A DNA stretch of 64,000 nucleotides from Pseudomonadota bacterium (GTDB lineage Bacteria; CALINM01), in NCBI GenBank assembly GCA_026418415.1, contig JAOABK010000003.1, positions 1,685 to 65,684 of the forward strand. The letters are read 5' to 3'. Below the pieces are notes generated by a model. That model was given only the letters and a program-made list of their open reading frames with translations, was not told where the DNA came from and did not search any database. Shown in pieces: positions 14,936 through 63,567 of the stretch (position 1 is its first letter; every line of letters begins with the position of its first letter). Made by a program: the position numbers and the translations under genes.

Positions 14936-15286
14936 TTGTTATATGATATTTACATGCCCATACCATTAAAAATAGTTATAACACTCTTAATAATTATGCT
15001 TGCTTCAGAATTAGGAAAAAGATTGCCCCATCTGAGTGGTCTTATAGCTACTATGCCAATCACCACACTTTTGGTTCTCCTATGGCTAAATTACGAAACA
15101 GGAACTAACTATCAGATTTTAACTAAATTCACGTTAGCGGTAATTTTTGGTATTTTCCCAAGCATTTTCTTTTTCATAGTACTTTATTTTTGCTTTTTAA
15201 AGGGATTTTCTTTTTATATATCTCTATTTTTTGCCTTTCTCGTATGGGGCTTTGGTGCTATTATTCATCAGTTTTTTTTGAGGTAA
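14936..15286 (+). CDS. Small integral membrane protein (4 predicted TM)
   Basis: 116 aa, strongly hydrophobic throughout; the only long + strand ORF here. Confidence 0.4.
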   Translation: MLYDIYMPIPLKIVITLLIIMLASELGKRLPHLSGLIATMPITTLLVLLWLNYETGTNYQILTKFTLAVIFGIFPSIFFFIVLYFCFLKGFSFYISLFFAFLVWGFGAIIHQFFLR

Positions 15287-18694: not shown

Positions 18695-18706
18695 ATAATA
18701 CCCCTT

Positions 18707-19378
18707 TTATTTATAAAATTTGATTAGTTTCTCTGGTTTGAATCCTGCCAAGAAAAGAATAACTATAAAAACATTTTTAAGACTATGAAGTATTGGATAA
18801 AAAAGTCCACCTTTTTCAATTCTTCTTGATGAGACCAGTACTTCTTTATTAATCATCTTAACTTTTCCAGCCTTTCTTAGCCTTAAAATAAGGTCTAAAT
18901 CCTCAAGAAAGGGGTAATTTTTTATACCACCAATAACCCTCAAAATTTCTTTTTTAAAAAAAATCGCCTGATCTCCATAGGGAAGATAATGTAACTTGGA
19001 ACGAATATTAGCAAATATCTCAACTAATTTCACAAAAAAATTATTTGATAGATACTTTAATCTGAAAAAACCTGCAATTTCATTGTCCTTTAATTCAAAA
19101 TCCTTTAAGGTAACCTCTTTAGATAAAATAGTATCAGCATGAAGAACTAATATAATATCTCCTTGAGCATTTTCAATGCCCTTATTAATTTGTAATCCCC
19201 TTCCTTTAGGTGAATTAATTATTTTACAATTAAACTTTTTTGCTATATCGATTGTGTTATCTGTGCTTCCACCATCTATAACAATAACTTCATAAGGCTT
19301 TAGATCCTGCAATCGTTGTAATGTCTTCTCTAAAAAAAGGGCTTCATTATAGACTGGAATTATAATAGATAATCTCAT
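18707..19378 (-). CDS. Small GT-A/family-2 glycosyltransferase-like transferase (resembles the 'rSAM/selenodomain-associated transferase 2' group)
   Basis: LSIIIPVYNE, DxD-like VIVIDGGSTD, ~220 aa single domain; immediately upstream of the ArsM/ArsS fusion. Confidence 0.6.
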   Translation of the reverse strand: MRLSIIIPVYNEALFLEKTLQRLQDLKPYEVIVIDGGSTDNTIDIAKKFNCKIINSPKGRGLQINKGIENAQGDIILVLHADTILSKEVTLKDFELKDNEIAGFFRLKYLSNNFFVKLVEIFANIRSKLHYLPYGDQAIFFKKEILRVIGGIKNYPFLEDLDLILRLRKAGKVKMINKEVLVSSRRIEKGGLFYPILHSLKNVFIVILFLAGFKPEKLIKFYK

Positions 19379-21870: not shown

Positions 21871-23879
21871 AAAAGATTAAAATTAAAAAGCCTATTTTGC
21901 ATATTTCTTTGTATATACTCTGCATAGCTATGTTTGCTCAATTTTCTCTAAGCCTTATTCTAAATGTTGTTGGATACTATTTTGATATGAAGGAGACAAT
22001 TAGAAAAACTGGGGAATCAAAAATAGATAAAATAAACAATTTTATTGAAAGAATTGTTTCCCTGGGAGTACCCATAAACGAAATTGCACAATTAAATCAA
22101 GAGTTAGAAAAAGAAGTAAAGGATGACGTATTTCAATTTTTCACTGTAGTAGATGAAAATAATAATATCCTCTATCACAGCGATCCAATAGTGGTAGGAA
22201 CAAAATTCCCTATCGAACAAAATAAATTAGAGGCAAAGAGAGAATTAAAAGTAACAATATTTCCCTATAACGATGTTTTTCTTATTTCAAAACCAATTTA
22301 CGATTATAAAAAGACAAAAGTTGGCTTCATAATTGCAGCATATTCTCCAAACATAATCTATAAGAAAGTCTTCTGGGTTTTCTTAAGAGCCTCCTTTGCT
22401 TCATTTATAACTGGAATTTTTGGTATTGCTTTAATAGTTTACTTTTATAAAAAACAGATTCAAAAACCTTTAACTACATTGTTAGAAGGGCTTGAAAAAT
22501 TTAAAGAAGGTAAATTTGAAGAAATTCCAATAGTAGATGAAGATACTGAAATCAGTGCGATCATCTCTTCAATTAACAATATGGTAACAACTCTAAAAAA
22601 GACCTTTATAGAAAAAGAAACTCTTCTAAATAAACTAAAAAATGAAGAGGAAAAATTAAGAAAAATTATAGAAAAAACTGAAATGGGAATAGCGGTAATA
22701 AAAAATGATAAATTTGTATTTGCAAATCCTGGTTTTTTAAAAATATTAAAAATAGATTATACCTATCATTTAATTGGCAAGAGTATATACGATTTTTTCT
22801 CGCCCAGTGAAAGATTTTATTTTCGTGAAGCCTTCAATGAAGTATTAGAAACAGGACAGAAAAAAACTTTTGACACTGTTAAAATGTATGATGCACAAAA
22901 TAATGAAATCTTTTGTTCTCTGGAAGCTTCGATTCTTGAAACTTCAGAATGGGGCAAAAAACTTCTTAATCTTACCTTCCAAGATATAACAGAGAAAGTA
23001 TATTTTATGGAAGAACTAAAATCCAAAAATAAAGAGTTAGAGCAACTCATTGAAAAATATAAGTCAACACAGTTAGCTCTTCAAATAGCAAACGAAAAAT
23101 TAGAAAATGCATTGACAGCTGTAGAAAAGGCAAATGAAGAGCTCAAGAAGATTGATAATATGAAAGATGTTTTCTTCTCAACAATAACTCATGAATTAAA
23201 AACACCTCTTTCCCTAATTCATGGTTATATAAGCATTTTAAAATCTGATAGTAATGTTAAAGCATCAAATATGACGCTTGATATTGTAAATGCCATCGAA
23301 AGAGGAGCAAAAAGACTAACAAGCCTGACTGAAGAAATAATGGAGCTTATGAAAATCAGGTCTGGCAAACTGGTTCTTAATCCGACGCTAACCTATTTAA
23401 AATTTATAATAAACCCTCTAATAAATGAGTTAGATCCTCTATTGAAATCAAAAAATTTACATATTGAATTATACAACATTGAACAAATGCCCATGATCAG
23501 TTTAGATACAAAGAAGTTTGAAACTGCATTAAGAAATATAATCGTAAATAGTATAAAATATTGTAAAGAAAACGGAAAAATCATTATAAACGCCACACAA
23601 GAAAATATAGACGATAAAAAGTTTATCAAAATAGCCATTTCAGATGAGGGGTGCGGGATCTCTCCTTTTAATATAGAAAAGATTTTTACCGAGTTCTTTA
23701 CATTACCTCCACCTCAATCTGGAAAGGAACTTCCAATTAGAGGAACTGGTTTAGGCTTATCAATAGCAAAGGGTATAATAGAAGCCCATGGCGGTAAAAT
23801 ATGGGCAGAAAGCCCTGGCTATGATCCAGAAAACAATCCAGGTACAACCTTTTTTATAACAATTCCTATTATTGATTAA
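21864..23879 (+). CDS. Sensor histidine kinase (2 TM periplasmic sensor, HAMP-like, PAS, HisKA, HATPase_c)
   Basis: H-box HELKTPLSLIHGY; G-boxes GTGLGLSIAKGIIEAHGG; TM segments; PAS-like region. No cognate response regulator adjacent. Confidence 0.8.
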   Translation: MLEKIKIKKPILHISLYILCIAMFAQFSLSLILNVVGYYFDMKETIRKTGESKIDKINNFIERIVSLGVPINEIAQLNQELEKEVKDDVFQFFTVVDENNNILYHSDPIVVGTKFPIEQNKLEAKRELKVTIFPYNDVFLISKPIYDYKKTKVGFIIAAYSPNIIYKKVFWVFLRASFASFITGIFGIALIVYFYKKQIQKPLTTLLEGLEKFKEGKFEEIPIVDEDTEISAIISSINNMVTTLKKTFIEKETLLNKLKNEEEKLRKIIEKTEMGIAVIKNDKFVFANPGFLKILKIDYTYHLIGKSIYDFFSPSERFYFREAFNEVLETGQKKTFDTVKMYDAQNNEIFCSLEASILETSEWGKKLLNLTFQDITEKVYFMEELKSKNKELEQLIEKYKSTQLALQIANEKLENALTAVEKANEELKKIDNMKDVFFSTITHELKTPLSLIHGYISILKSDSNVKASNMTLDIVNAIERGAKRLTSLTEEIMELMKIRSGKLVLNPTLTYLKFIINPLINELDPLLKSKNLHIELYNIEQMPMISLDTKKFETALRNIIVNSIKYCKENGKIIINATQENIDDKKFIKIAISDEGCGISPFNIEKIFTEFFTLPPPQSGKELPIRGTGLGLSIAKGIIEAHGGKIWAESPGYDPENNPGTTFFITIPIID

Positions 23880-25242
23880 AGATATTTATTAAAGTTTTAG
23901 CAATTATTGGTATTTCCTCATCCCTAACTGTTCTAAAATCAATTATGCAGGCCTGTTCTTTTCTTCTTGCAACTATAGGTGGACTGGAATGTAAAAGCCT
24001 TAACACCAAATCCTCTTCTGATATAAGGGGATGCTTAATCCTTAAAACACAGGTTTTCAATTCAACCCCTGGAAGACTTCCACCACCTGGAGCTGAATAA
24101 TCTGTTGTTAATTGGAAAAATTCTTTATCTATCTTAGATCTTAATAGCTTTAATAATCTTTTACCACGCTTTGTTATAACTTCGATTGGTTCTAAAAGCA
24201 TACTCAATACAGGAGAGTAACCATATGCGCTTATAGACAAATAACTAAAGAGTCTTTCTAAATAATATAAAGTAAATTTATCGGGTCTAAGAGCTCTATA
24301 CATAGGATTTTTTTTCATCAATTCTATTAAATCCTTTCTTCCTACGATTATTCCAGCCTGAGTGCCTCCTAAAAGTTTGTCACCACTAAAAGATATTATA
24401 TCAACACCCTTTTTAACTTCTTCATCTATTATTGGTTCGGCATTACTAATGTTTTTTATAACTGAAATCGCACCACTTCCCTCATCAAAGTAAAGGGGTA
24501 AATTATATCTTCTTGATAACTCAACCAGTTGTGTAGTTGAAACTTCTTCCACAAATCCTTTCAGGACAAAATTGCTTCTATGAACCTTTAAAATTAATCC
24601 CGTATTGTCATTTATTGCCCTTTCATAATCAATAGGCTTGGTTTTATTTGTTGTTCCAACCTCTTTCAATATTGCTCCCGATGCCTTCATTATTTCTGGT
24701 ACTCTAAAAGAGCCACCAATTTCAACAAGTTCCCCCCTGGACACTATAACTTCTTTGCCCTGTGCTAAGGTATTTAATACTAAAAGACACGCTGAAGCAT
24801 TATTATTAACTACAAGAATATCCTCTGCACCAAACAAATCTGGTTTTAGATGCTTTAGACGAGAACCTCTTTTCCCTTCTACCAGATCAAATTCAAGATC
24901 TGAATAGTTACAAAGAAGAGGCTTTATCTCATCTATTATCTTTTCAGAAAGTGGAGCTCTGCCTAAATTTGTATGGATTACCGTTCCGGTGGCATTAATA
25001 ACCCTCTTTATCTTTGGAGATGATATCTTTCCTATAAATTTTTTCAAATTATCAGTAAAATTTACATTTGAAAATAGATCTTCTTTTTCTTCAAAAGTAC
25101 CATTTTTTATCGACTCTCTTTGCTCATCAAGCATAAGAGTAATTGCTCTTTTTACAATTTCCTTTGGAAAATCAATACCCTCTTTCTCTGCCCTTTCTAA
25201 AAGTATGTCCATCTTTGGTAAATAATCTTTAAATTTATTCAT
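23869..25242 (-). CDS. selA: L-seryl-tRNA(Sec) selenium transferase
   Basis: SelA motifs INATGTVIHTNLGRAPL, VSRGELVEIGGSFRVPEIM, PLP-Lys region FSGDKLLGG; ~457 aa. Confidence 0.85.
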   Translation of the reverse strand: MNKFKDYLPKMDILLERAEKEGIDFPKEIVKRAITLMLDEQRESIKNGTFEEKEDLFSNVNFTDNLKKFIGKISSPKIKRVINATGTVIHTNLGRAPLSEKIIDEIKPLLCNYSDLEFDLVEGKRGSRLKHLKPDLFGAEDILVVNNNASACLLVLNTLAQGKEVIVSRGELVEIGGSFRVPEIMKASGAILKEVGTTNKTKPIDYERAINDNTGLILKVHRSNFVLKGFVEEVSTTQLVELSRRYNLPLYFDEGSGAISVIKNISNAEPIIDEEVKKGVDIISFSGDKLLGGTQAGIIVGRKDLIELMKKNPMYRALRPDKFTLYYLERLFSYLSISAYGYSPVLSMLLEPIEVITKRGKRLLKLLRSKIDKEFFQLTTDYSAPGGGSLPGVELKTCVLRIKHPLISEEDLVLRLLHSSPPIVARRKEQACIIDFRTVRDEEIPIIAKTLINIFNQ

Positions 25243-40282: not shown

Positions 40283-41728
40283 TTAATTTTTCTTCCCTTC
40301 GGTTTTCTGTACTTCCTTTTTGCTATTTATTAGTTCAGATCTGGTACCAAATTTCATTGGATCACCCTTGTAACCCAATGCCTTCCAGTCAAGCCTCTTC
40401 CCTCCCATATGGCATTCGTCACATCTGAGGGCTTTCTCTTTTGGAGCTACCTCATGATTAATACTTCCATAAAAGGCGGTTTCAACAAATTCATATTTTC
40501 CACTGAATGGAAGTTGTGAACCTAAGGCGCCTTCTACAAGTGCTTTTTCCCAGTTATGATGGCTCCATAAGCCTTTGTAAAGTTTAGGTATCAGTAAATA
40601 CTTGTATTCACTATCCATAGGTTGCTTACCAGTATGGACTTTAAAAGGATAAATTTTGGCATTCCTATCCATAATATTTCCAACGGGCTTTGAAATATAG
40701 ACAACATCTTTAGGATTGGAAATTTTATCGCCCTTTAGATATCTTTCTATTTTTCCATTGTACCATGCATATGTAGGCTTGACATTCATTGCCCATTCAA
40801 ATGTACCCTTATGTTTTACATAGGTTTCCCTTCCAAACTGTTCTTCTGGTTCAATATCCTTTCCTACTGTTGACCAATCCCATCTCATCTTTGTTGGCTT
40901 AGCTTTTGCAAAATAGGGGATATGGCAAGTCTGACAGGCTACAGTATTCAAATGTTTATCAATTATTTTACCTGACTTACTTTCAGCATGGGGTTTTTTA
41001 TGGCAGTCTTCACAGCTAACCCTTCCCTCATTTGTCGCTAAAAACGTTGAAGCACCTGAAATCTTATGCTCATTAGTTACATGACATGCCTGGCAAGTCA
41101 TATCAGCAACACCACCCATATGAACATCATGTTCCCTTTTCGGTTTTACAAGAGAACTATCTAAATCACCATGTTTGACCCCTTCTCCACCGCCACCATA
41201 AAAATGGCAGACTCCACAGTTTTCTCTTTTAGGTTTACCAACACTTTGAGCAACTTTTGTAAGTGACATAATACCTTTATCAATTAATGTTTTATCAGGT
41301 TCTCCAGAAAGCCCCTTTTGATAATTTCCTTCCCTTGCATGACAAATAAGACAGTCTATTTTTTCTTTATTGCTAAAATCGAATGTGTTATCCTTCCAGC
41401 CATAGCCGGGATGACACTTTGTACAGAACTCTGCATTACTACACTTATCTCCACCTTCTATGGATATGCAGAAATTGTTAATAAGATTGCTCTTACCATA
41501 CTCTTCCTTAGAATTTTCTTTCCCCTTAACTGTTCTTGGAACTCCTTTCCATTTCCAGTGAGACGTTTTGATAAAATCACTCGCTTGCTTATCATGGCAC
41601 TCCAAACATGCCTTTGTTACTTCTTCTCCACTTTTAAAAGGACCAGTAATAAACTTTGAATGATCTTCAGCAATTGCTAAATAAGCCCCGATAAGGACTA
41701 TAGCTAAACCCCAAAAAAACCTTTTCAT
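40283..41728 (-). CDS. Periplasmic octaheme c-type cytochrome
   Basis: Signal peptide; eight CxxCH motifs (CLECH, CTKCH, CLICH, CGVCH, CQACH, CEDCH, CQTCH, CDECH) in 481 aa. Confidence 0.8.
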   Translation of the reverse strand: MKRFFWGLAIVLIGAYLAIAEDHSKFITGPFKSGEEVTKACLECHDKQASDFIKTSHWKWKGVPRTVKGKENSKEEYGKSNLINNFCISIEGGDKCSNAEFCTKCHPGYGWKDNTFDFSNKEKIDCLICHAREGNYQKGLSGEPDKTLIDKGIMSLTKVAQSVGKPKRENCGVCHFYGGGGEGVKHGDLDSSLVKPKREHDVHMGGVADMTCQACHVTNEHKISGASTFLATNEGRVSCEDCHKKPHAESKSGKIIDKHLNTVACQTCHIPYFAKAKPTKMRWDWSTVGKDIEPEEQFGRETYVKHKGTFEWAMNVKPTYAWYNGKIERYLKGDKISNPKDVVYISKPVGNIMDRNAKIYPFKVHTGKQPMDSEYKYLLIPKLYKGLWSHHNWEKALVEGALGSQLPFSGKYEFVETAFYGSINHEVAPKEKALRCDECHMGGKRLDWKALGYKGDPMKFGTRSELINSKKEVQKTEGKKN

Positions 41729-42006: not shown

Positions 42007-42080
42007 GGGCTCATAGCTCAGCTTGGTAGAGCCACCGGCTCATAACCGGTCGGTCCCTGGTTCGAATCCAGGTGAGCCCA
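42007..42080 (+). tRNA. tRNA-Met(CAU) elongator type (could be tRNA-Ile2 if lysidinylated)
   Basis: Cloverleaf folded by eye: acceptor GGGCTCA/TGAGCCC, anticodon stem ACCGG/CCGGT, loop CTCATAA (anticodon CAT), T-arm CCTGG-TTCGAAT-CCAGG. G1-C72 paired, so not initiator. No encoded CCA. Confidence 0.85.
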
Positions 42081-42150
42081 CTAACTTTATTATCTATGGC
42101 TTTTTTATTTATAAATATGTTGCATATAGGCGTTTTTATTAAGCAAAAAA

Positions 42151-44017: not shown

Positions 44018-44384
44018 TTGAGCAGGGGATACGGCTACTCCCAAATAGGGAGAGGAAAGTCCGGGCTCCAGAGGGCAGAGTGCTTCCTAACGGGAAGTTT
44101 CGGCGACGAAAGGAAAGTGCCACAGAAAACATACCGCCTTGCAATATTGCAAGGTAAGGGTGAAAAGGCGAGGTAAGAGCTCACCGCTCCAATGGTGACA
44201 TTGGAGGCATGGCAAACCCCACTCGGAGCAAGACCAAATAGGCATTGTAGCGCATATGCGCTGGCTTCTGCCCGAAGCCCTCTTTATAAGAGGCAATGCG
44301 GGTAGGTTGCATGAGATAGCTTGCAAAAGCTATCCTTAGATAAATGGCCGTACTCGACAGAACCCGGCTTATACCTCTGCTCAA
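44018..44384 (+). ncRNA. rnpB: RNase P RNA, bacterial type A
   Basis: Universally conserved segments GGAAAGTCCGGGCTCC and ACAGAACCCGGCTTA present. P1 pairing between 5' TTGAGCAG and 3' CTGCTCAA. TATAAT at 44007-44012 just upstream. GC-rich island in AT-rich DNA. ORF-track ORFs 44087-44326 and 44181-44450 (minus) are spurious. Confidence 0.9.
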
Positions 44385-44393
44385 AATAAAAAT

Positions 44394-46345: not shown

Positions 46346-47116
46346 ATGAATAGAATAATTGAATGGCTTGGGAAAACATTTATTGATTTTTTATCAGAAG
46401 CAGGAAGGATGCTCCTTTTGTTAATAGAGGTAGTTAAGCAAACTATTAAACCACCTCTAAAGTTAGAAAGGATTTTTATCCAGATGGAGTTTATTGGTGT
46501 TAAATCCCTTTTTGTAGTCATCCTTGTTAGTTTATTTACAGGTATGGTATTAGCCTTACAAACCTACACTGGCTTTAGAAGATTTAGTGCTGAGAGTATG
46601 GTTGGAGCAATTGTTGCACTAAGCCTTTGTAGAGAGTTAGGGCCAGTTTTAACAAGTATCATGGTTACAGCAAGGGCTGGTTCAGCTATGGCTGCAGAAA
46701 TTGGAACAATGAGGGTAACTGAGCAGATAGATGCATTAACAGTAATGGCTGTTAATCCAGTAAAATATTTAATAGTACCAAGAATCCTCGCCTCTGTATT
46801 AGTAATCCCTGTACTTACAATAATTTCTGATTACACAGGTATAGTTGGTGGATATATAGTGGGGGTCAAACTTCTCAATATAAATGAAGGCGTTTACATA
46901 AATAGAACTATTGACCTTTTAGAGATGAGCGATATTTTTAATGGGCTTTTTAAATCGGTCGTTTTTGCACTCCTGCTCTCACTAATTGGATGCTATAAAG
47001 GTTATTATACAAAAGGTGGGGCAAGAGGGGTTGGAAAGGCAACTACAGAAGCAGTTGTTCTTTCCTGTGTTGTAATCTTTATTGCAGATTATATACTAAC
47101 ATCCTTTTTATTTTAA
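46346..47116 (+). CDS. mlaE: Mla (phospholipid ABC) transporter permease
   Basis: MlaE/Ttg2B family multi-TM protein, ~256 aa. Confidence 0.8.
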   Translation: MNRIIEWLGKTFIDFLSEAGRMLLLLIEVVKQTIKPPLKLERIFIQMEFIGVKSLFVVILVSLFTGMVLALQTYTGFRRFSAESMVGAIVALSLCRELGPVLTSIMVTARAGSAMAAEIGTMRVTEQIDALTVMAVNPVKYLIVPRILASVLVIPVLTIISDYTGIVGGYIVGVKLLNINEGVYINRTIDLLEMSDIFNGLFKSVVFALLLSLIGCYKGYYTKGGARGVGKATTEAVVLSCVVIFIADYILTSFLF

Positions 47117-47118
47117 CT

Positions 47119-47886
47119 ATGGAAGATAACATTATAAAGATAAGAAAACTCAGCAAGAGATTTGGCACACAAGAGGTTCTTAAGGAACTTGATTTAGATA
47201 TTCCAAAGGGACAAATAACTGTCATTATTGGTAGGAGTGGTGGCGGTAAAAGTGTACTATTAAAACACATCATTGGACTATTAAAACCCGATAGCGGAGA
47301 AATACTAATAGATGGGATAGATATTGCCAAAGAACCAGAAGATAAATTAAACGAAGTAAGAAAAAGATTTGGCATGCTCTTTCAGGAAGGAGCTCTTTTT
47401 GATTCAATGACCATAGAAGAAAATGTCGCCTTTCCACTGTTAGAACACACAAATTTATCTGATAAAGAGATTGAAGAAAGGACAAAAGAAGTTCTTGCCA
47501 TGGTCGGTCTAATAGGAGCAGAAAAGAAATACCCATCAGAAATTTCTGGTGGCATGAGAAAAAGGGCTGGTCTTGCAAGGGCAATAATTGCTAAACCAGA
47601 TATTATACTTTTTGATGAACCAACAAGTGGATTAGATCCTATAATGTCAGCCCATATTGATAATCTTATCGTTGATATTCAAAAAAGATTAAATGTAACT
47701 TGTATTATTATAAGCCATGATATACAATCTACTTTTAGGATAGCTCATAAGATTGCCATGTTATACGATGGTAAAATAATTGCTGAAGGAACACCAGATG
47801 TTATGAGAACAATTGATAATCCTTACTTAAGACAGTTTATAGAAGGGTCTTCACAAGGACCTATTCAGGTGGTGGATAATGAATAA
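47119..47886 (+). CDS. mlaF: Mla transporter ATP-binding protein
   Basis: Walker A GRSGGGKS, signature ISGGMRKRAG, Walker B ILFDEPTSGLD. Confidence 0.8.
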   Translation: MEDNIIKIRKLSKRFGTQEVLKELDLDIPKGQITVIIGRSGGGKSVLLKHIIGLLKPDSGEILIDGIDIAKEPEDKLNEVRKRFGMLFQEGALFDSMTIEENVAFPLLEHTNLSDKEIEERTKEVLAMVGLIGAEKKYPSEISGGMRKRAGLARAIIAKPDIILFDEPTSGLDPIMSAHIDNLIVDIQKRLNVTCIIISHDIQSTFRIAHKIAMLYDGKIIAEGTPDVMRTIDNPYLRQFIEGSSQGPIQVVDNE

Positions 47887-49330
47887 GGCATTATCTTCAG
47901 AGTTTAAAGTAGGTATCTTTGTTATAATTGGTTGCATAATACTTGTTTATATGTCTCTTAAAGTAGGAAAGTTCAAACTTTTTGGTGGTGGTAAGACATA
48001 TGAAGTGAGTGTTCTTTTTGATAACACCGAGGGTTTAGATAAAGGTGGTTCGGTTCAGATTTCTGGTGTAACAATAGGAAGGGTCAAAGATATAAAACTC
48101 GAGGGGAAGAAGGCAAGGGTTATACTTGAATTGGGCGAAGATGTGATACTAAAAAAGGATGCCTACGCAACGATTAAAACAAAGGGAGTATTAGGAGAAA
48201 AGTTTGTCGAGCTATATCCAGGGGATGCTGATGAGAGAATCCCAAAAGGCGGAGAAATTCTTTATGTAAAAAAGACTATGGACATAGATAAGCTCCTTGC
48301 TTCAGTTGATACAGTTATGGAAGACATAAAAGCAGTAACAATAAATCTTAGAAAAACCTTAGGCGGGGATGAGGGAGAGCTTGCCCTTAAAGGTATAAGA
48401 GATAATCTTTATGAACTTACAGTAAACATTAATAAACTTGTACGTAAAAATGATGAAAGCCTTACAAACACAGTCAAAAACTTAGAAAAATTCTCTATGG
48501 TTCTTGCTGAAAAAACTCCCGAACTCTCTGAAGAGTTAAAAGAGATAACAAGAAATCTCAAAGATATGCTAAAAGAAAACAGAGGAGATGTAAGAGAAAG
48601 TATAGAAAATATTAAAAAAGCATCTGAGAGGCTTGATCAAACTCTCGCATCAATTAAAAGTGTATCCGATAAAATTGACAAGGGAGAAGGTACTCTTGGA
48701 AAACTTATAAATGAAGACTCTGTTCATGAAAACATAAATAAAACCCTTAGTGGGGTCAACAAGATGCTTAACAAAGCTGATTCTTTAAGAACATTCTTCG
48801 AATTTAAATCCGAGTATTTACAAAGGCTAAGTGATGCACGTTCTCAGGTAAATCTAAAAATTTATCCAAAAACCGATTACTTCTATATGATTGGTGGTGT
48901 AGATAGCCCTAAAGGAAGGCTTTCGAGAAAAACTGAAAGGGTAACTGGATTAGCAATGCCAGTAATAACAACAACTGAAACTGAGAAAGAAAGGACTGTT
49001 CTTATAAACGCCCAGATAGGTAAAAGATTTCACGATGTAGAGATTCGAGGAGGGCTCTTTGAATCCACCGGTGGACTTGGAATCGATTGGTATACCCATA
49101 ATGATAAGTTTAAACATACCTTTGAAATATACGATTTCGATAAGAAATACAATCCCAATATTAAAATCGGCACAAACTACAACTTATTTAAATACTTTTT
49201 CCTTTCGGCAGGTATAGATGATCTTGTTAGCGATAGGAAAAGAAGGAGTGTTTATTTAGGTGCTGGAATTAAGTTCGAAGATGAAGATATTAAATATTTA
49301 CTAACCTCTGCCCCCCTTCCTACAAAATGA
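47879..49330 (+). CDS. mlaD: MCE-domain protein (MlaD-like) with long C-terminal coiled-coil extension
   Basis: N-terminal TM, MCE domain (VLFDNTEGLDKGGSVQISGVTIGRV), long helical C-terminus; its stop overlaps the selD start (ATGA). Confidence 0.75.
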   Translation: MNKALSSEFKVGIFVIIGCIILVYMSLKVGKFKLFGGGKTYEVSVLFDNTEGLDKGGSVQISGVTIGRVKDIKLEGKKARVILELGEDVILKKDAYATIKTKGVLGEKFVELYPGDADERIPKGGEILYVKKTMDIDKLLASVDTVMEDIKAVTINLRKTLGGDEGELALKGIRDNLYELTVNINKLVRKNDESLTNTVKNLEKFSMVLAEKTPELSEELKEITRNLKDMLKENRGDVRESIENIKKASERLDQTLASIKSVSDKIDKGEGTLGKLINEDSVHENINKTLSGVNKMLNKADSLRTFFEFKSEYLQRLSDARSQVNLKIYPKTDYFYMIGGVDSPKGRLSRKTERVTGLAMPVITTTETEKERTVLINAQIGKRFHDVEIRGGLFESTGGLGIDWYTHNDKFKHTFEIYDFDKKYNPNIKIGTNYNLFKYFFLSAGIDDLVSDRKRRSVYLGAGIKFEDEDIKYLLTSAPLPTK

Positions 49331-50361
49331 GCAATTTAGATAAGAAAATTAATCTTTTAGAGTATGCAACCTCAGCAGGTTGAGCTGCAAAAGTAGGTCC
49401 GGCGGACCTAAAAAGACTAATGGAATCTCTAACTATTAAAAAAGACGAGAGAGTTATAATAGGCCCAGAAAATTCGGATGACTCTGCTGTAGTTATAGCA
49501 GGAAAAGAGACAATTCTTCAAACAGTTGATATTATAACACCAATAATTGAAGATCCTTTTATCTTTGGTCAGATTTCAGCAACAAATGCCCTTTCAGACA
49601 TTTATGCTATGGGTGGAAAACCAGTTAGTGTACTTAATATTGCTTGCTTTCCCATAGACTGTCTTGACCTTGAAATTCTTAAAGAGATTTTTCTTGGCGG
49701 TTTATCAAAGATAGAAGAAGCGAATGCAGTGCTTGTAGGTGGACATACAATAACTGATAAAGAAATAAAGTATGGGCTGTCTGTTATAGGCATAAAAGGG
49801 GAAAACCTTTATCATAACGCTATTGCGAGAGAGAATCTTGATATTATTTTAACAAAGCCTATTGGTGGTGGCATAATTAGCACCGCTCTTAAAGCAGAAA
49901 TGATTGAAAAAGAACATAGAGAAGAGTTTATTAAGTATCTGACAAGGTTAAACAAATATTCTGCAGAAATTGCAGAAAAAGTTGGAATAATTACCATGAC
50001 TGACATAACAGGGTTTGGGCTTTTAGGACACCTTATAGAAGTTTTAAAAGCAAGCGGTATATCTGCAAAAATATTTAAAGAGAATATTCCCTTTATGAAT
50101 GGTTTTGATCAATATATATCTTATGGACTGATACCCGCAGGAGCATATAGAAATAAAGAATTTGTCGAATCCTACGCAGAAGGGGAACGGGACTGGATTT
50201 TAAAACTCTCAGCTCCAGAAACTTCAGGCGGTCTTTTGATTTTCTGTAGCAAAGAAAATACAAAAGAGTTAATAGATAAAATCAGGGAGAAGGGTGACGA
50301 AAGGGTAACAAAGATTGGTGAGACAACAAAATTAGAGAGTAAATATGTTTATTTGTGTTAA
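49327..50361 (+). CDS. selD: Selenide, water dikinase (selenophosphate synthetase), a selenoprotein with in-frame UGA (Sec) at 49381-49383
   Basis: ORF track begins at an internal Met (49420). The upstream in-frame sequence ATG...LLEYATSAG-TGA-AAKVGPADLKRLM aligns with the SelD N-terminal Cys/Sec loop (E. coli ...HGAGCGCKISPKVL). SECIS-like hairpin follows 10 nt after the UGA. Body has SelD motifs (NALSDIYAMGGKP, LVGGHT). Confidence 0.8.
49394..49411 (+). promoter_or_regulatory. SECIS-like hairpin for selD UGA recoding
   Basis: TAGGTCC-GGCG-GGACCTA perfect 7-bp stem starting 10 nt 3' of the UGA. Confidence 0.55.
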
Positions 50362-50362
50362 T

Positions 50363-50935
50363 TCAAGATTTATTTAATAAATCTTTTCCAATAATAGACA
50401 ATTGCTTTAAATCTTCCCAGATATCATATCCAAGGTTATCTAATACAATTTCTTTTAACCTTTCCAATCTAATCTTTCCACTTTCTAAAACTAATATTAT
50501 GTCTAATAAATCTTTATTTCGCCCAGCAAAAATTTTCATAATAACAATGAATTCTGGATAAACTATTTTTACTTTAATATCATCCCAATTTAAATAAATG
50601 AAATTATCTAACGCCTCTTCTTCCCAGCTATTATATGCTAAAAGAATATCAAAACAGAATCCTTCTTTAACAACCTTTACGGTACTTATCCCATATCCCC
50701 CTAAGCCACCAACAACAAAGTCAGAATCATTTAAATGGGACTTAAAGTTCTCTAAATCATAGGGATATAATAATATATCAAGATCTTCAAAAGTTGGCAA
50801 CCTACCGTCAACAAATAAACCAACTCCCCAGCCACCCACAAGAGCATAATTAAAGGGTTCAGCAATTTTAAAAAACTCCCTAATTGTGTTTTCTCTCCCT
50901 GACAAACTTACAAAATGAAACCACTTTTCTAACAT
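50363..50935 (-). CDS. Nucleotidyltransferase-fold (minimal NTase-like) protein
   Basis: GGWGVGLF...FEDLDILL pattern resembling the GS...DxD NTase motif; 190 aa. Confidence 0.4.
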   Translation of the reverse strand: MLEKWFHFVSLSGRENTIREFFKIAEPFNYALVGGWGVGLFVDGRLPTFEDLDILLYPYDLENFKSHLNDSDFVVGGLGGYGISTVKVVKEGFCFDILLAYNSWEEEALDNFIYLNWDDIKVKIVYPEFIVIMKIFAGRNKDLLDIILVLESGKIRLERLKEIVLDNLGYDIWEDLKQLSIIGKDLLNKS

Positions 50936-51369: not shown

Positions 51370-52887
51370 TTACCTTTCTTCTGTTGCCTTAGCAATCTTT
51401 TTTAATAAGCTTAACCCTCTATCAATTAGTTCTTTATCATCTTTATTTTTAAGGTATAAAGTTTGATAGGATTCGTAAAGCCACTGTGTTATCTCTTCCT
51501 TCAAATCCACAGGTAGATATGTTTTATCAAGAGCATTTCTTACTTTTGATGGTGATGATAATAGAAGTTCTTCATTTGTAATCTTTTCTAAAGCTATTAA
51601 GATAGAACGCTGTACCGATGAGAGATTTAAACTTCCTTCACTTTTCTTAGATTCTTCTTTTAATTCTTTTCTTTGAGTTTTTTTGCTTCTTACATAAAGT
51701 ACTATCGTTGTTATTGTGACAAATACAAAAAATCCTAAAAATAAATAAAAATCGTAATCAGGTCTTATTCTTATATTTAGATTTTTTTCGTAATCTTCTT
51801 TTTCTTTTGATACTGGATTGCTTGGTATATGCACTTTTACTGTTCTAGTAAAAGATGATAGATTTTTAAAAGAATTGTTAATAGGATTGAATATTTGTAA
51901 TGAAGGGGTTTTGATTGTATAAACACCATCTGAAGGGGGGATAAAAAAATATGTGAAATTATTATTTCCCCTATACTCTGGGAATTTACTAAAATAGTCT
52001 TTTTTATCTTCCTTTAAAAAAACCTCTACACTTGGTGATACCTCTAAATTTATTGGTTTTATTTGCTCTAAAAACCCAGTTCCACTTACACTTATGTCAA
52101 TTTGTACTGCATTATTTTCAGTAGCGGTATAGGGATTTATCTTTATTGAATAGTCACCTATCAGGAATTTTTCTTCTCCCTGTTTTATCTCCTTAACATC
52201 AAATTTGAGCGTACTCGTTGAGAACATAAGCTCTTTATTTAAAAAATTTTTAACAGCAATCTTTAAAGGAGCTAAATTATATTTGCCTTCTTTTGTGAAT
52301 ATTGCTGAATAAATAATCTCTCTTCTGCCATCCTTTTTTAATCTTTCTTCTACCTTTTCAACTATTACACCTTCCCAGCCTGGCCAAAAAATATTCATTT
52401 CTTTTATTGTTGAGGGAACATCAACTATTAAATAAGCAGGCATATATTTGTAAAAATCTTTGTGTGGTATAATTGTATAGAATTTAGGAGGGGCGTCTTG
52501 GGATTTCTGTTTAACATCGTTAAAAACTATATTTTCATCATCTCTAACCTCTATGCTTACTTTATTAACGGAAACTGAGCCACCTAAAAGATCATGAAAG
52601 ACAAAGGGACCCAATTCATATCTCCCCTCCTTTTCAAAAATACAGTATAGGTCTAATCTATTAAGATATTGCCCCTTAAAAGTTGTTGTTAGTAATTGAT
52701 TTACTATCAGACTATTTTCTGGTGAAAGAAAAATTGGAGTACTTTTTATAGGATTTTCAGTATTAAAATTTAAAGTTATTTTGGTCAATCTGTTTGTGAT
52801 TGTAGTGTTAATTTCCTGAGCAAAAAGAAAACTTGGGATTATTAGATAAATTAAAAAAAGGATTCTTTTTAAGACATGGGACATCAA
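51370..52887 (-). CDS. Hypothetical signal-peptide protein with one C-terminal TM and Lys-rich cytoplasmic tail (BatD-like topology)
   Basis: Signal peptide, ~370-aa exoplasmic region, single TM (LFLGFFVFVTITTIVLYV), ~110-aa cytoplasmic tail. Confidence 0.4.
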   Translation of the reverse strand: MMSHVLKRILFLIYLIIPSFLFAQEINTTITNRLTKITLNFNTENPIKSTPIFLSPENSLIVNQLLTTTFKGQYLNRLDLYCIFEKEGRYELGPFVFHDLLGGSVSVNKVSIEVRDDENIVFNDVKQKSQDAPPKFYTIIPHKDFYKYMPAYLIVDVPSTIKEMNIFWPGWEGVIVEKVEERLKKDGRREIIYSAIFTKEGKYNLAPLKIAVKNFLNKELMFSTSTLKFDVKEIKQGEEKFLIGDYSIKINPYTATENNAVQIDISVSGTGFLEQIKPINLEVSPSVEVFLKEDKKDYFSKFPEYRGNNNFTYFFIPPSDGVYTIKTPSLQIFNPINNSFKNLSSFTRTVKVHIPSNPVSKEKEDYEKNLNIRIRPDYDFYLFLGFFVFVTITTIVLYVRSKKTQRKELKEESKKSEGSLNLSSVQRSILIALEKITNEELLLSSPSKVRNALDKTYLPVDLKEEITQWLYESYQTLYLKNKDDKELIDRGLSLLKKIAKATEER

Positions 52888-53927: not shown

Positions 53928-54932
53928 ATGGCAATAGATAACCAAAAAGCAAAAGCTCTGGAGGCAACCCTTTCTCAGATAGAAAAGCAGTTTGGAAAAG
54001 GTTCTATAATGAAATTAGGGGAAAAGAAACAGGAAACGATAGATGTAATCCCCACAGGCTCTATTGGGCTTGATTTAGCATTAGGAGTTGGAGGTGTTCC
54101 AAGGGGCAGGATTGTTGAGATCTATGGACCAGAGTCATCTGGTAAGACCACTCTTTGTCTCCATATAATTGCTGAAGCGCAGAAAAAAGGAGGTATAGCA
54201 GCATTTATTGATGCAGAACATGCCCTTGATGTAAACTATGCCCGCTCATTAGGTGTAAATACCGATGACTTATTAATTTCCCAGCCTGATACTGGAGAAC
54301 AGGCATTAGAAATAGCAGATTATTTAGTTAGAAGCAATGCAGTAGATGTTATAGTTATAGACTCTGTTGCTGCATTAGTTCCAAAAGCAGAGATTGAAGG
54401 TGAGATGGGAGATGCCCATATGGGGCTTCAGGCGAGGTTAATGTCACAGGCTTTAAGAAAGCTTACTGCAAATATATCAAAGACCGGTACAACAGTAATT
54501 TTTACAAACCAGATACGCATGAAAATAGGTGTTTTCTTTGGTAATCCTGAAACCACAACCGGTGGTTATGCTCTAAAATTTTATGCATCAGTTAGAATGG
54601 ATATAAGACCTGTTGGCCCAATTAAAGAGGGGAATGACAAGATCGGAACAAGAACTAAGGTTAAAGTTGTGAAAAACAAAGTGGCTCCTCCCTTTAGAGA
54701 GGCTGAGTTTGATATCCTATACGGTGTGGGAATTTCAAGGGAAGGAGAGGTCATCGATTTAGGTTCAGATCTTGGCATAATTGAAAAAAGCGGTGCATGG
54801 TATTCCTACAAGGGAGAGAGAATAGGTCAAGGAAAAGAGAATGCCAAACAATATCTCAAGGAACATCCTGATATTTTAGTAGAGATAGAAAATATGATTT
54901 TAGAAAAATTTGGGCTTCCAAAGAGGAGTTAA
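53928..54932 (+). CDS. recA: Recombinase A
   Basis: Walker [11 protein letters not shown]1/L2 loops, FIDAEHALD; unmistakable. Confidence 0.95.
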
Positions 54933-56092: not shown

Positions 56093-56520
56093 TCTGGAAT
56101 TATGCCTGCGACCTTTTAAGTAGGCGTATTTATTCAGAAAGGGAACTCCAAAACAAGTTACAAAAAAGGTATCCTCAAGATACAGAAATAGTAAATACCA
56201 TAATAGAAAAGCTAAAATATTACAAATATCTTAACGATTCCGAAAATGCAAAAATTTTAATTGAGCACCTTAAAAACAAAGGTTATGGTCCAAGGTATAT
56301 CACGAGCTATCTTTTAAGAAAAGGGTTTGTTGACATAAACTGGGATGTAAATTATGATTACAACATGATGAAAAAATGGTATGAAAAGAAAAGGGGTAAC
56401 GAAAAAATTAGAGATTTAAAAACCTTTAGAAAAATGTATAATTACCTTCTAAGCAAAGGTTTTTTATCAGAAGAAATTATAGAATTTTTAAAAGGATGGA
56501 CAGATTATGAAAGGGAGTGA
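56035..56520 (+). CDS. recX: RecA regulator RecX
   Basis: RecX-like three-helix repeats (YACDLLSRRIYSERELQNKLQKRY...); ORF-track start overlaps the pilT 3' end by 58 nt, so the true start is uncertain. Confidence 0.65.
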   Translation: MAERKSTRARRNSENREVLIWNYACDLLSRRIYSERELQNKLQKRYPQDTEIVNTIIEKLKYYKYLNDSENAKILIEHLKNKGYGPRYITSYLLRKGFVDINWDVNYDYNMMKKWYEKKRGNEKIRDLKTFRKMYNYLLSKGFLSEEIIEFLKGWTDYERE

Positions 56521-59134
56521 GATAAGAAAAAAGTTCCTTGATTATTTTGCAGGGCATTATCATCAGGTAGTAAAAAGTTCAAGCCTCGTTCCAAAAAACG
56601 ATCCAACCCTTCTTTTTACAAATGCTGGCATGAACCAGTTTAAAGATTGTTTTTTAGGGATTGAGAAAAGATCTTATAAAAGGGCTTGCAGTGTACAAAA
56701 ATGTGTAAGAGCAGGAGGAAAGCATAACGACCTTGAAAACGTTGGATATACAGCAAGACATCATACATTTTTTGAAATGCTTGGTAATTTCTCCTTTGGT
56801 GACTATTTCAAAAAGGATGCTATCTTTTATGGCTGGGATTTTTTAACAAGAGAAATGGGGCTTCCAAAGGAAAAACTTTGGGTAACTATTTATAAAGATG
56901 ATGATGAGGCTTTTGAACTATGGCAAGAGGTTGCAGGGGTTAAACCTGAAAGAATAGTTAGACTTGGAGAAAAGGATAATTTCTGGGCAATGGGCGATGA
57001 AGGCCCTTGCGGTCCCTGTTCTGAAATTATTATTGATCAGGGAGAACACGTTGGGTGTGGAAGTAAAGATTGCGCTGTTGGATGTGATTGCGATAGATTT
57101 CTTGAATTATGGAATTTAGTTTTCATGCAATATAATAGATTTAAAGATGGAACTCTTGAACCACTACCTAACCCAAGCATTGATACAGGAATGGGACTGG
57201 AAAGAATAACCGCTGTAATTCAAGGAAAACCTTCTAATTTTGAAACCGATTTGTTATTCCCCTATATTGAAAAAATGGCTAAACTTGCAGGAGTTGAATA
57301 CGGTCGGGATAAAAAAATAGATGTCCATCTAAGGGTAATAGCAGACCATATAAGGGCTATGACCTTTCTTATTTCAGATGGTGTTTTCCCCTCAAATGAA
57401 GGCAGGGGTTATGTTTTAAGACGCATTATGAGAAGGGCAATAAGGCATGCAAAGATGCTTGGTTTTGATAAGCCAGTGCTTTTCAATTTAACAGAAGAAG
57501 TGGTCAGAGTAATGAAAGATGCCTACCCTGAGCTTTCTGATACAATAGAGCTTGTTAAAAAGGTTGTTCATAATGAAGAAGAACGCTTTTTTGAGACCCT
57601 TGATAGTGGATTAAAGATTCTTTTTGAACATCTCGAAAAAATGAAGAAAAAAGGGGAGAAGGTCTTTTCTGGAGAAATTGCTTTCAAGCTCTATGATACC
57701 TATGGATTCCCAATTGATCTTACACAGGATATTTTAAGGGAGCAGAATATTCAAGTTGATATGGCTGAGTTTGAAAACTTCATGGAAAAACAAAGAGAAA
57801 CTGCAAGAAAACATTGGAAGGGAGAAGAAGAAGCAATAGATAGCATTTACAAGAGCCTTGCTCAGGAAATAAAAGTGGATTTTGTAGGATACGATACCCT
57901 TGTAGGTGAAGGTAAAGTAATTAAATTAATACAAAATGGTTTTACGGTAAAAGAGATGTTAGAGGGTGAAGAAGGTGAGATAATCACAGATAGAACTCCC
58001 TTTTATGGTGAATCAGGTGGTCAGGTAGGAGATGTTGGTACCATTGAATCAGACAACTTCATCTTTGAAGTTACTGATACAAAAAGATTTAGCGATTTGA
58101 TAATACATCGTGGGAAGGTGTTAAAGGGAGCAATAAAGGAAAATGACAAATGCCTCTTACGAGTAAAAGACGACTTAAGAGATAATACAATGTCACATCA
58201 TACTGCAACCCACTTATTACAGTCTGCATTACAAAAGGTTTTAGGTCCCCATGTAAAGCAAGCGGGTAGTTTGGTAACCCCTGATAGATTAAGGTTTGAT
58301 TTTACTCATTTTGCTCAGGTAACAAAAGAAGAATTAAACACCATAGAAGAGCTTGTAAATCAGTGGATTAGAGAAAACAGAAAAGTCCATATAGATTATT
58401 TGCCCTATGATGAAGCTATAAAAAAGGGTGCGATGGCAATTTTCGGCGAAAAATACGGCGATATAGTCCGACTCGTAGAAGTTGAGGGCGTAAGCAAAGA
58501 ATTATGTGGTGGTACCCATCAAAAATACACAGGCAACATAGGTGTTTTTAAAATTGTCTCCGAAGAGAGTGTTGCTTCTGGTGTGCGACGTATTGAAGCA
58601 TGCGCTGGATTGGCAGGAATGAAATTTATAAAAGAGAGAGAATCTCTTATTGAAAGATGTTCTTTAGCACTCAAAACTAGTCCTCAGGATTTAGAAGCGA
58701 AATTAGAAAGAATGCTAAAAAGGGAAAAAGAACTTGAAAGGGAGCTTGAATCTCTAAAATCACGCCTCTTAAAATATGAACTACAAGAAGCGATAAAAAT
58801 AAAAACATTATCAAAGGGTATTAAACTTGTTACCGCTGAAGTTAAGGTTAGTAATGCTGAAGAGATGAGAAATGTCCTGGACAGTATAAAAAACAAACAC
58901 ATAGATTCAATTATTTTTATTTTAGCATCTATGGAGGAAAAAAATAGTTGTTTACTTTATGTACCCGATAATTTGACAGATAATTACGATGCAGGAAAGT
59001 TACTACAGGATATAACAAAACCGTTAGGTGGTAGAGGTGGTGGGAAAAAGGGTCTGGCACAGGGTGGATTCCCAAAAGAAGTTGCCTTCGAAAAAATTGT
59101 TAATACATTATTTGATATGCTGGAGCAAAAATAA
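56507..59134 (+). CDS. alaS: Alanine--tRNA ligase
   Basis: Class II aaRS motifs, editing domain HxxxH/CxxxH, C-terminal DHHA1; 875 aa. Confidence 0.95.
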   Translation: MKGSEIRKKFLDYFAGHYHQVVKSSSLVPKNDPTLLFTNAGMNQFKDCFLGIEKRSYKRACSVQKCVRAGGKHNDLENVGYTARHHTFFEMLGNFSFGDYFKKDAIFYGWDFLTREMGLPKEKLWVTIYKDDDEAFELWQEVAGVKPERIVRLGEKDNFWAMGDEGPCGPCSEIIIDQGEHVGCGSKDCAVGCDCDRFLELWNLVFMQYNRFKDGTLEPLPNPSIDTGMGLERITAVIQGKPSNFETDLLFPYIEKMAKLAGVEYGRDKKIDVHLRVIADHIRAMTFLISDGVFPSNEGRGYVLRRIMRRAIRHAKMLGFDKPVLFNLTEEVVRVMKDAYPELSDTIELVKKVVHNEEERFFETLDSGLKILFEHLEKMKKKGEKVFSGEIAFKLYDTYGFPIDLTQDILREQNIQVDMAEFENFMEKQRETARKHWKGEEEAIDSIYKSLAQEIKVDFVGYDTLVGEGKVIKLIQNGFTVKEMLEGEEGEIITDRTPFYGESGGQVGDVGTIESDNFIFEVTDTKRFSDLIIHRGKVLKGAIKENDKCLLRVKDDLRDNTMSHHTATHLLQSALQKVLGPHVKQAGSLVTPDRLRFDFTHFAQVTKEELNTIEELVNQWIRENRKVHIDYLPYDEAIKKGAMAIFGEKYGDIVRLVEVEGVSKELCGGTHQKYTGNIGVFKIVSEESVASGVRRIEACAGLAGMKFIKERESLIERCSLALKTSPQDLEAKLERMLKREKELERELESLKSRLLKYELQEAIKIKTLSKGIKLVTAEVKVSNAEEMRNVLDSIKNKHIDSIIFILASMEEKNSCLLYVPDNLTDNYDAGKLLQDITKPLGGRGGGKKGLAQGGFPKEVAFEKIVNTLFDMLEQK

Positions 59135-63339: not shown

Positions 63340-63493
63340 TATAATTTAGCATAAAATATGCCCAAAAAGTAGTTGAAAAGTTATGTTTTTTTCGCAAAAA
63401 TTAGGCAAAGCTCTGACAGTTGACAGTTTTTTACCATTAATAATTTTAAGGTTTATTTAATTCTTTCTTTAGGAATCCACGAAATTATTTTAG

Positions 63494-63567
63494 CTGGGGC
63501 GGGAGGCATCGAACCTCCAAACTCCAGAGTCAAAGTCTGGTGGCTTTACCAATTCGCCTACGCCCCA
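63494..63567 (-). tRNA. tRNA-Gln(UUG)
   Basis: Reverse complement TGGGGCG-TA-GGCG...CCAGA-CTTTGAC-TCTGG...GGAGG-TTCGATG-CCTCC-CGCCCCA-G: U1-A72 pair and G73 discriminator typical of tRNA-Gln; anticodon TTG. Confidence 0.8.

Follow-up and report, generated by a model that had tools for sequence, protein, structure and literature searches.

The window analysed here is a stretch of 64,000 nt from an uncultured, low-GC bacterium (Pseudomonadota; contig JAOABK010000003.1 of assembly GCA_026418415.1), and positions are given with 1 as its first letter, followed by the strand. Its selD gene, at 49327-50361 (+), very probably encodes a full-length selenophosphate synthetase (selenide, water dikinase) with selenocysteine (Sec) at codon 19, as judged from the sequence. 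The Sec residue would be specified by an in-frame UGA with the help of a downstream hairpin of the Sec insertion sequence (SECIS) type. The evidence comes from the reading frame, from the alignment of the product with the SelD family, from the conservation of the UGA in related loci, and from a comparison of the hairpin in genes that have a Sec codon or a Cys codon at this site.

The selD gene and its reading frame

The sequence from 49100 to 50500 was read, and the part from 49327 to 50361 was translated. A single continuous frame leads from the ATG at 49327-49329 to the TAA at 50359-50361, and it is interrupted by only one in-frame TGA. The full coding sequence comprises 344 codons, including the one putative Sec-UGA, plus the stop codon. 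Eighteen sense codons, translated as MSNLDKKINLLEYATSAG, precede the UGA at 49381-49383 (+), which is codon 19, would be read as Sec, and aligns with Cys17 of E. coli SelD. The peptide directly after the UGA, AAKVGPADLKRLM..., is in frame with the mechanically listed open reading frame (ORF) that begins with the ATG at 49420, and the longer run of residues past the UGA, AAKVGPADLKRLMESL..., continues to the TAA. An initial annotation of the window had proposed this frame, from ATG 49327 through the UGA into the ORF at 49420, and it is borne out by the sequence and its translation.

The internal ATG at 49420-49422 (+) encodes Met32. It is the start chosen by a stop-to-stop ORF finder, but not the real start, which is located 93 bases further upstream. 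The corresponding product has 313 aa and lacks the loop with the Sec and Lys residues that is described below.

Identity of the gene product

For the profile search, the UGA was replaced by Cys in the 344-aa query. The score with TIGR00476 (SelD) was 315.9 bits, compared to a cut-off of 125, and residues 10-311 matched positions 2-310 of the 311 positions of the profile. Both domains of the PurM-like SelD architecture were identified with Pfam, i.e. AIRS (PF00586) at residues 51-156 with 76 bits and AIRS_C (PF02769) at residues 173-341 with 61.5 bits. The best match to a solved structure was the SelD of Aquifex aeolicus (2yye/2zod, E = 1.5e-70). Its loop, SSGCAAKVGPGDL in 2yye, aligns with SAG[U]AAKVGPADL in the window, and the UGA column corresponds to the C of SSGCAAKVGPGDL. 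E. coli SelD (3u0o, E = 8e-64) has Cys17 in the UGA column, and its Lys20 corresponds to Lys22 of the window. The earlier claim that the extended N-terminus aligns with SelD is thus confirmed, with a TIGR00476 match from profile position 2 onwards and the UGA on Cys17 of E. coli.

Lys22 of the N-terminal Gly-rich loop is encoded by the AAA at 49390-49392 (+), upstream of the start given by the ORF finder. The gene contains the Gly-rich loop with its Sec/Cys and Lys columns only if translation starts at 49327, and not at 49420. Sec19 and Lys22 presumably reside in a mobile N-terminal catalytic loop, as do Cys17 and Lys20 in E. coli, and we take Lys20 of E. coli, the counterpart of Lys22, to be essential. 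Five further residues, i.e. D52, D68, N87, D91, and D226, are invariant in an alignment of 22 SelD sequences; from the structure papers on the E. coli and A. aeolicus enzymes, we take these to be metal- and ATP-binding residues. The selD product is predicted to make selenophosphate from selenide and ATP.

Conservation of the UGA codon in related loci

A scan of a genome collection yielded five Sec-type relatives (L001-L005) with identities of 57% or less. All five have TGA in the same column, while two more distant relatives from the same scan have TGC. The closest public SelD proteins are up to 79% identical, are all from uncultured organisms, and are all called with 312-322 aa, i.e. they are cut just after the UGA. 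The loci of closer homologs, with SelD identities of 64-79%, were also fetched (L008-L012; L011 repeats L010 over the selD stretch). Each of them has the context G-TGA-GCN-GCN-AAR and an AGGTCC...GACCT hairpin. The nearest relatives thus provide nine distinct loci (L001-L005, L008-L010, and L012); all of these keep the TGA column, which in each case follows a conserved coding N-terminus.

The sample was widened by a metagenome scan with a SelD alignment, which added 80 further loci, and 89 distinct selD loci were obtained after de-duplication. The aligned column contains TGA in 75 of the 89 loci (Sec-type) and TGC or TGT in the remaining 14 (Cys-type). The non-TGA homologs thus always have Cys in the Sec column, never Trp or Gly. 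The initial assignment of the UGA to the Cys/Sec loop of SelD is well supported by this distribution. The flanks of the UGA are conserved as protein, with 'L(T/L)xxxxxxG' before and 'AxK.GP' after it, and the TIGR00476 match spans the UGA. The 18 codons upstream of the UGA show protein conservation with synonymous variation across the 75 Sec-type loci. The AAR column of Lys22 is invariant at two positions in 75 of 75 Sec-type loci.

Public calls of Sec-type SelD proteins are wrong in two ways. They are either N-terminally truncated to 312-322 aa (P0001-P0023), or they are complete but show W in the Sec column, as is the case for P0024, P0025, P0037, P0093, P0103, and P0120 among the entries of the protein collection. 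For P0025, the W corresponds to TGA in the DNA (L093:340-342), and therefore this contig was translated with a code in which UGA specifies Trp. An early warning that ORF callers would misread the gene has proven justified, as the closest public homologs are all truncated and others have W at the Sec column.

The hairpin downstream of the UGA

The putative SECIS-type hairpin is located at 49394-49410 (+). It consists of the 5' arm TAGGTCC (49394-49400), the loop GGC (49401-49403), and the 3' arm GGACCTA (49404-49410). The stem has seven perfect bp, the overall length is 17 nt, and the distances from the UGA are 10 nt to the stem and 17 nt to the loop. The initial annotation had described a perfect 7-bp hairpin 10 nt after the UGA with the loop GGCG; stem and distance are correct, while the real loop is GGC with 3 nt, and the motif has 17 instead of 18 nt. 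Folding of the segment with ViennaRNA gave -9.5 kcal/mol, with only this hairpin formed, and the value for the hairpin alone was -8.7 kcal/mol.

A bacterial SECIS (bSECIS) model has been published in a 2026 review (PMC13188914). It includes a loop of 3-9 nt, an upper stem of 4-16 bp, a distance of 16-37 nt between UGA and loop, a G at loop position 1, 2, or both, typically as G[G/U]N, and a minimum free energy (MFE) of -7.5 kcal/mol or lower. The hairpin in the window is within all of these limits, with the 3-nt loop GGC, a stem of 7 bp, a distance of 17 nt, and energies of -9.5 and -8.7 kcal/mol for segment and hairpin alone, respectively. The agreement with the published model, as scripted from PMC13188914, and the enrichment after Sec codons described below both speak for the earlier view that this is a bacterial SECIS element.

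The codons that form stem and loop are rare in the genes of the window, which has a GC content of ~32%. CCG accounts for 3.9% of the Pro codons, GCG for 6.3% of the Ala codons, and GAC for 14.8% of the Asp codons. From the codon frequencies of the window, the chance of obtaining a 7-bp stem with only Watson-Crick pairs is ~1.4e-4, and it is ~7e-3 when G-U pairs are allowed.

Two other kinds of RNA candidates at this locus were discarded. A 4-bp helix with the UGA in its loop was dropped, as it appeared not to be conserved when the sequences of the relatives were compared by eye. Sub-threshold Rfam matches near selD (COG3860 RNA and a long non-coding RNA) were regarded as chance matches.

Comparison of Sec-type and Cys-type loci

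The fractions of loci with a hairpin differ between the two types of selD genes. A contiguous stem of at least 6 bp that begins 8-20 nt after the codon and has a loop of 3-9 nt is found in 52 of 75 Sec-type loci, but in only two of 14 Cys-type loci (Fisher p = 1.7e-4). In the exact register of the window, a stem of at least 5 bp is present in 41/75 and 1/14 loci, respectively (p = 8e-4). A strict scripted version of the bSECIS constraints was also applied, which required contiguous stems and took into account only the energy of the hairpin itself. It selected 35 of the 75 Sec-type loci, one of the 14 Cys-type loci, and 47 of 1149 control windows within the same genes (4.1%; p = 1.5e-24 for Sec-type loci versus controls). 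The MFE values of the whole segments do not separate Sec-type from Cys-type loci (p = 0.12), while the shuffle z-scores do (p = 0.009).

The influence of the protein sequence can be removed by holding the peptide GPxDL constant. Among such Sec-type genes, GGU is used in 35/37, CCG in 34/37, and GAC in 37/37 cases; the respective values for Cys-type genes are 1/5, 1/5, and 3/5. GGU, CCG, and GAC are exactly those synonymous choices that pair GGUCC with GGACC and place a G in the loop. Where the peptide differs, the hairpin is rebuilt from other sequence, often 3 nt further on (L004, L005, L017, L043, and L058). Examples of rebuilt stems are AUCCAG/CUGGAU in L004, GGUCUGC/GCAGACC in L005, CGCCAA/UUGGCG in L017, and GUCCAGC/GCUGGAC in L058.

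Points against a SECIS element and their weight

Several results weigh against the interpretation of the hairpin as a SECIS element in a Sec-decoding gene. When the hairpin is considered in isolation, it barely exceeds chance (z = -1.69), with 14 of 200 dinucleotide shuffles reaching its stability. Rfam searches of the whole window at the gathering threshold, and of 49250-49550 with a permissive E-value, gave no match to a SECIS family. About half of the Sec-type loci, including the closest relatives, fail the strict scripted bSECIS constraints; in the closest relatives, this is because a 5-nt loop weakens the hairpins to about -6.7 kcal/mol. Covariation in a fixed register does not exceed column shuffles (73.1% versus 72.2% paired), and double changes occur in only one of seven pairs, with eight cells, which is reached by 39 of 500 shuffles. 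No consensus structure was obtained with RNAalifold for the 75 Sec-type segments, since their hairpins are formed in two or more registers. The stem is situated within the conserved coding motif VGPxDL, and therefore its conservation must be attributed in part to the protein sequence. Finally, two components of the decoding machinery were not seen: ARAGORN and Rfam detected no tRNA-Sec in the 64-kb window (only tRNA-Met and tRNA-Gln), and no SelB model matched any of 43 window ORFs that were scanned against NCBIfam, i.e. every ORF of at least 400 aa except 56507-59134 (syntenic with alaS of L008), plus others. The flanks of eight related selD loci likewise contained neither tRNA-Sec nor selB.

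In our reading, the comparisons point to selection for a hairpin at this site that has mostly led to one conserved sequence solution, and not to textbook covariation. One solution dominates because the stem sits in a conserved peptide. The indications that the hairpin goes beyond chance are comparative, namely the contrast between Sec-type and Cys-type genes, the choices at synonymous sites, and the rare codons.

Sec machinery and the meaning of TGA in the window

The selA gene, which encodes L-seryl-tRNA(Sec) selenium transferase, is located at 23869-25242 (-), 24 kb from selD. It is full length, with a TIGR00474 score of 498.2 bits versus a cut-off of 267.9 and a match of residues 8-451 to positions 4-453 of the 455-position profile, in accordance with the initial report of selA in the same window. 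No selU/ybbB match was found among the scanned window ORFs. Where SelB is not seen, the literature accepts SelA together with SelD as a marker of Sec use (PMC12013277). The source organism is very probably Sec-decoding.

The second best explanation of the UGA is that it is decoded without SelB and SECIS, either by near-cognate read-through with Trp or Cys or by the use of code table 4 or 25, and that the hairpin is a by-product of VGPxDL. We regard this as very unlikely. It is in line with the W in some public calls (P0024, P0025, with its TGA, P0037, and others), with the covariation in register, which is not significant, and with the fact that selB and selC were not seen in the window. A reassigned code is, however, contradicted by the window itself: 11 of its 55 long ORFs end with TGA, and, selD apart, none of the long ORFs has a TGA in frame. 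Genes split by TGA were sought with two thresholds, namely a total of 150 or more codons, and 60 or more codons situated mostly outside of long ORFs. With neither of them was a credible case found in the window besides selD. Because TGA is an ordinary stop and selD is the sole gene split by it, the UGA is not reassigned, and recoding is site-specific. In addition, the homologs without TGA have Cys and neither Trp nor Gly, with the peptide held constant, near-fixation of the synonymous codons that form the stem is confined to Sec-type genes, these codons are rare in the window, and five loci with a different peptide form the hairpin anew in another register. Lastly, selA is intact, and we know of no role of selA outside of Sec synthesis.

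The candidates that were rejected in the search for TGA-split genes had simple explanations. One of them (54797/54869) is contained in the 3' end of recA, in a different frame, and relatives have a normal start in the syntenic gene. Candidates in gaps overlap the RNase P RNA or a tRNA, and the remaining ones consist of ordinary TGA stops followed by a few codons. The earlier expectation that ORF callers would also split other selenoprotein genes has therefore fared differently in its two parts: miscalling is evident for the public homologs of selD, and a further split gene was not found in this window.

An even lower probability is assigned to the view that the UGA is a genuine stop, so that the 18-codon piece is untranslated or a leader peptide and a 313-aa SelD starts at ATG 49420, or that the gene is a pseudogene. 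The closest orthologs are indeed called in this way by the stop-to-stop ORF finder and by public pipelines (312-322 aa), and elsewhere in the window TGA serves as a normal stop. The protein collection contains neither a 313-aa nor a full-length SelD of this genome, although its RecA is present, which fits annotation as a pseudogene, but equally fits a dropped U-containing product. The 313-aa form would lack the Gly-rich loop with Sec/Cys and Lys (Cys17 and Lys20 in E. coli), while the upstream 18 codons are conserved as protein across 75 loci and align to the SelD profile from position 2. A pseudogene would also not retain one TGA exactly at the Cys column in dozens of lineages. An error in sequencing or assembly that turned TGC or TGT into TGA is hardly credible: the window is apparently derived from a metagenome-assembled genome (MAG; an NCBI 'MAG: Proteobacteria bacterium' protein matches its RecA with 100% identity), but the same TGA occurs in independent assemblies of relatives (64-79% SelD identity) and in 60-odd further unrelated metagenome contigs, and the accompanying hairpin is not expected from an error.

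Proposed decoding and dependence on selenium

Sec decoding of the UGA thus remains the preferred reading, and the following course is proposed. Translation of selD would start at ATG 49327, probably coupled to termination at the upstream mlaD-like gene via an ATGA overlap. SelB, loaded with GTP and Sec-tRNA(Sec), would attach to the hairpin with the GGC loop, which begins 10 nt after the UGA, and codon 19 would be decoded as Sec. The ribosome would then melt the hairpin and read it as V-G-P-A-D-L. The binding of SelB, the actual incorporation of selenium at the UGA, and the presence of selB and selC in the genome are to be expected by analogy with the established mechanism in E. coli, the paradigm of which is summarised in PMC9312934.

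SelD would make selenophosphate for the synthesis of Sec-tRNA(Sec) by SelA, so that the synthesis of SelD would depend on its own product and on the selenium supply. With SelD as the source of the selenium donor that is needed to make SelD, a dependence on selenium supply by positive feedback would follow logically. Autoregulation of SelD was raised as a question by Guimaraes et al. in 1996 (PNAS 93:15086), as cited in PMC1717018. We treat the autoregulation of selD by selenium as a long-standing hypothesis that is not demonstrated by sequence.

Genomic context of selD

The selD gene is the last gene of a tightly packed unit on the same strand. It is preceded by an mlaE-like gene (46346-47116, +), an mlaF-like gene (47119-47886, +), and an mlaD-like gene (47879-49330, +) that encodes a 483-aa protein of the MlaD family; the unit was recognised with MlaD/MCE models. 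The stop codon of the mlaD-like gene is the TGA at 49328-49330, and it overlaps the start codon of selD in the sequence ATGA at 49327-49330 (+). This overlap suggests translational coupling of selD to the mlaD-like gene. No outstanding promoter-like or terminator-like site was found between the two genes. The order mlaE-mlaF-mlaD-selD is kept in all near relatives that were fetched (L008-L012, based on Pfam labels of the syntenic genes), and in all of these the ATG of selD overlaps the stop of the mlaD-family gene or is within 6 nt of it.

Two conserved genes with no functional assignment are found downstream of selD on the opposite strand. The first, directly downstream (50363-50935, -; 190 aa), has a sub-threshold match to DUF6036 and a counterpart only in L008. 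The second (51370-52887, -; 505 aa) is syntenic in all near relatives and has only a marginal match to a BatD domain.

Comparison with known systems

Sec-containing SelD proteins occur, e.g., in Haemophilus influenzae, in Aquifex aeolicus, and in many Deltaproteobacteria and Clostridia. SelD and FdhA are the most widespread bacterial selenoproteins (PMC1794560), and it has been stated that 'SelD is a selenoprotein in many organisms' (PMC12013277). The protein in the window does not differ in kind from the bacterial Sec-SelD proteins of TIGR00476. Family and length are the same, Sec is located in the Gly-rich loop G-U-A-A-K ~20 residues from the start, and a SECIS hairpin follows immediately downstream within the coding sequence, as here. 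The loop of the A. aeolicus protein (2yye/2zod) is nearly identical in sequence. The Cys-SelD of E. coli (3u0o) shares the fold family and the register of the catalytic loop, but the E. coli type has TGC or TGT instead of TGA, and the Cys-type genes show no selected hairpin downstream (a stem in 2/14 loci versus 52/75 for the Sec-type). A difference is seen in the gene arrangement, as selD is at the end of an mlaEFD-like operon here, in contrast to the selD-selA-selB-selC or selD-ybbB arrangements of the literature (PMC1794560).

The SECIS elements of E. coli fdhF and fdnG are likewise stem-loops just 3' of the UGA inside the ORF, with a small apical loop and a G in its first positions. The hairpin of the window is shorter and simpler than the ~40-nt element of fdhF; it has no bulged U, and its 3-nt loop is at the lower limit of the model. 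It has no sequence resemblance to the E. coli elements, and such a lack of resemblance is usual for SECIS elements (PMC13188914).

The mini-hairpin GGUCCGG(N)GACC, with 17 nt, a loop of 3-5 nt, and no bulge, recurs with almost no change in roughly one half of the Sec-type selD genes, which come from widely differing metagenomes. It is conceivable, albeit unlikely, that this motif would represent a distinct, SelD-specific minimal class of SECIS, maybe for a divergent SelB, and that, jointly, the coupling of selD to mlaEFD would be a functional or regulatory link and not an accident.

Taken as a whole, the well-supported conclusion is that selD is the correct call of a well-known type of Sec-SelD, which is unusual only mildly, by its very compact SECIS and its place at the end of an mlaEFD-like operon. 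In this organism and its relatives, selD should be modelled as 49327-50361, with Sec encoded by codon 19, and the main use of the result is the correction of annotations. With the 313-aa model, the enzyme would be taken for truncated or inactive. As the organism is very probably Sec-decoding, other selenoprotein genes in its genome should be sought with UGA-aware tools. No new question is opened, as the literature on Sec-SelD, and on the idea of a coupling to selenium supply, dates back to 1996.

Other features of the window

An arsenosugar-type cluster is located at 15261-19378 (-). A gene for an arsenosugar glycosyltransferase (TIGR04283; 18707-19378) precedes a 598-aa ORF (16898-18694), in which an ArsM-like methyltransferase (NF040538, 306 bits) is fused to a domain of the ArsS radical-SAM '(seleno)protein' family (TIGR04167, 309.6 bits). 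The fusion ORF is followed by a 564-aa ORF (15261-16955) with a partial match to NF045663, a family that is named for its nearness to selenoprotein genes. No in-frame TGA was found in the ORFs of this cluster.

The next named relatives of RecA (53928-54932, +), i.e. those from Desulfuromonas, Geothermobacter, and Myxococcaceae, are only ~74-76% identical, and the lineage is therefore poorly placed. An octaheme c-type cytochrome of the tetrathionate reductase family is encoded at 40283-41728 (-; TIGR04315, 576.8 bits), which hints at anaerobic respiration of sulfur compounds in this organism. The only structured RNAs detected in the window by Rfam and ARAGORN are a full-length bacterial type A RNase P RNA (44019-44387, +; 310 bits), a tRNA-Met(CAT) (42007-42081, +), and a tRNA-Gln(TTG) (63493-63567, -). 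The 1.1-kb stretch at 544-1677 contains no ORF of at least 120 aa on either strand, the longest having 74 aa. It is adjoined by a gene for a 700-aa membrane protein (1678-3780, -) that has no match in NCBIfam and the C-terminal part of which looks like a candidate nucleotide cyclase domain.

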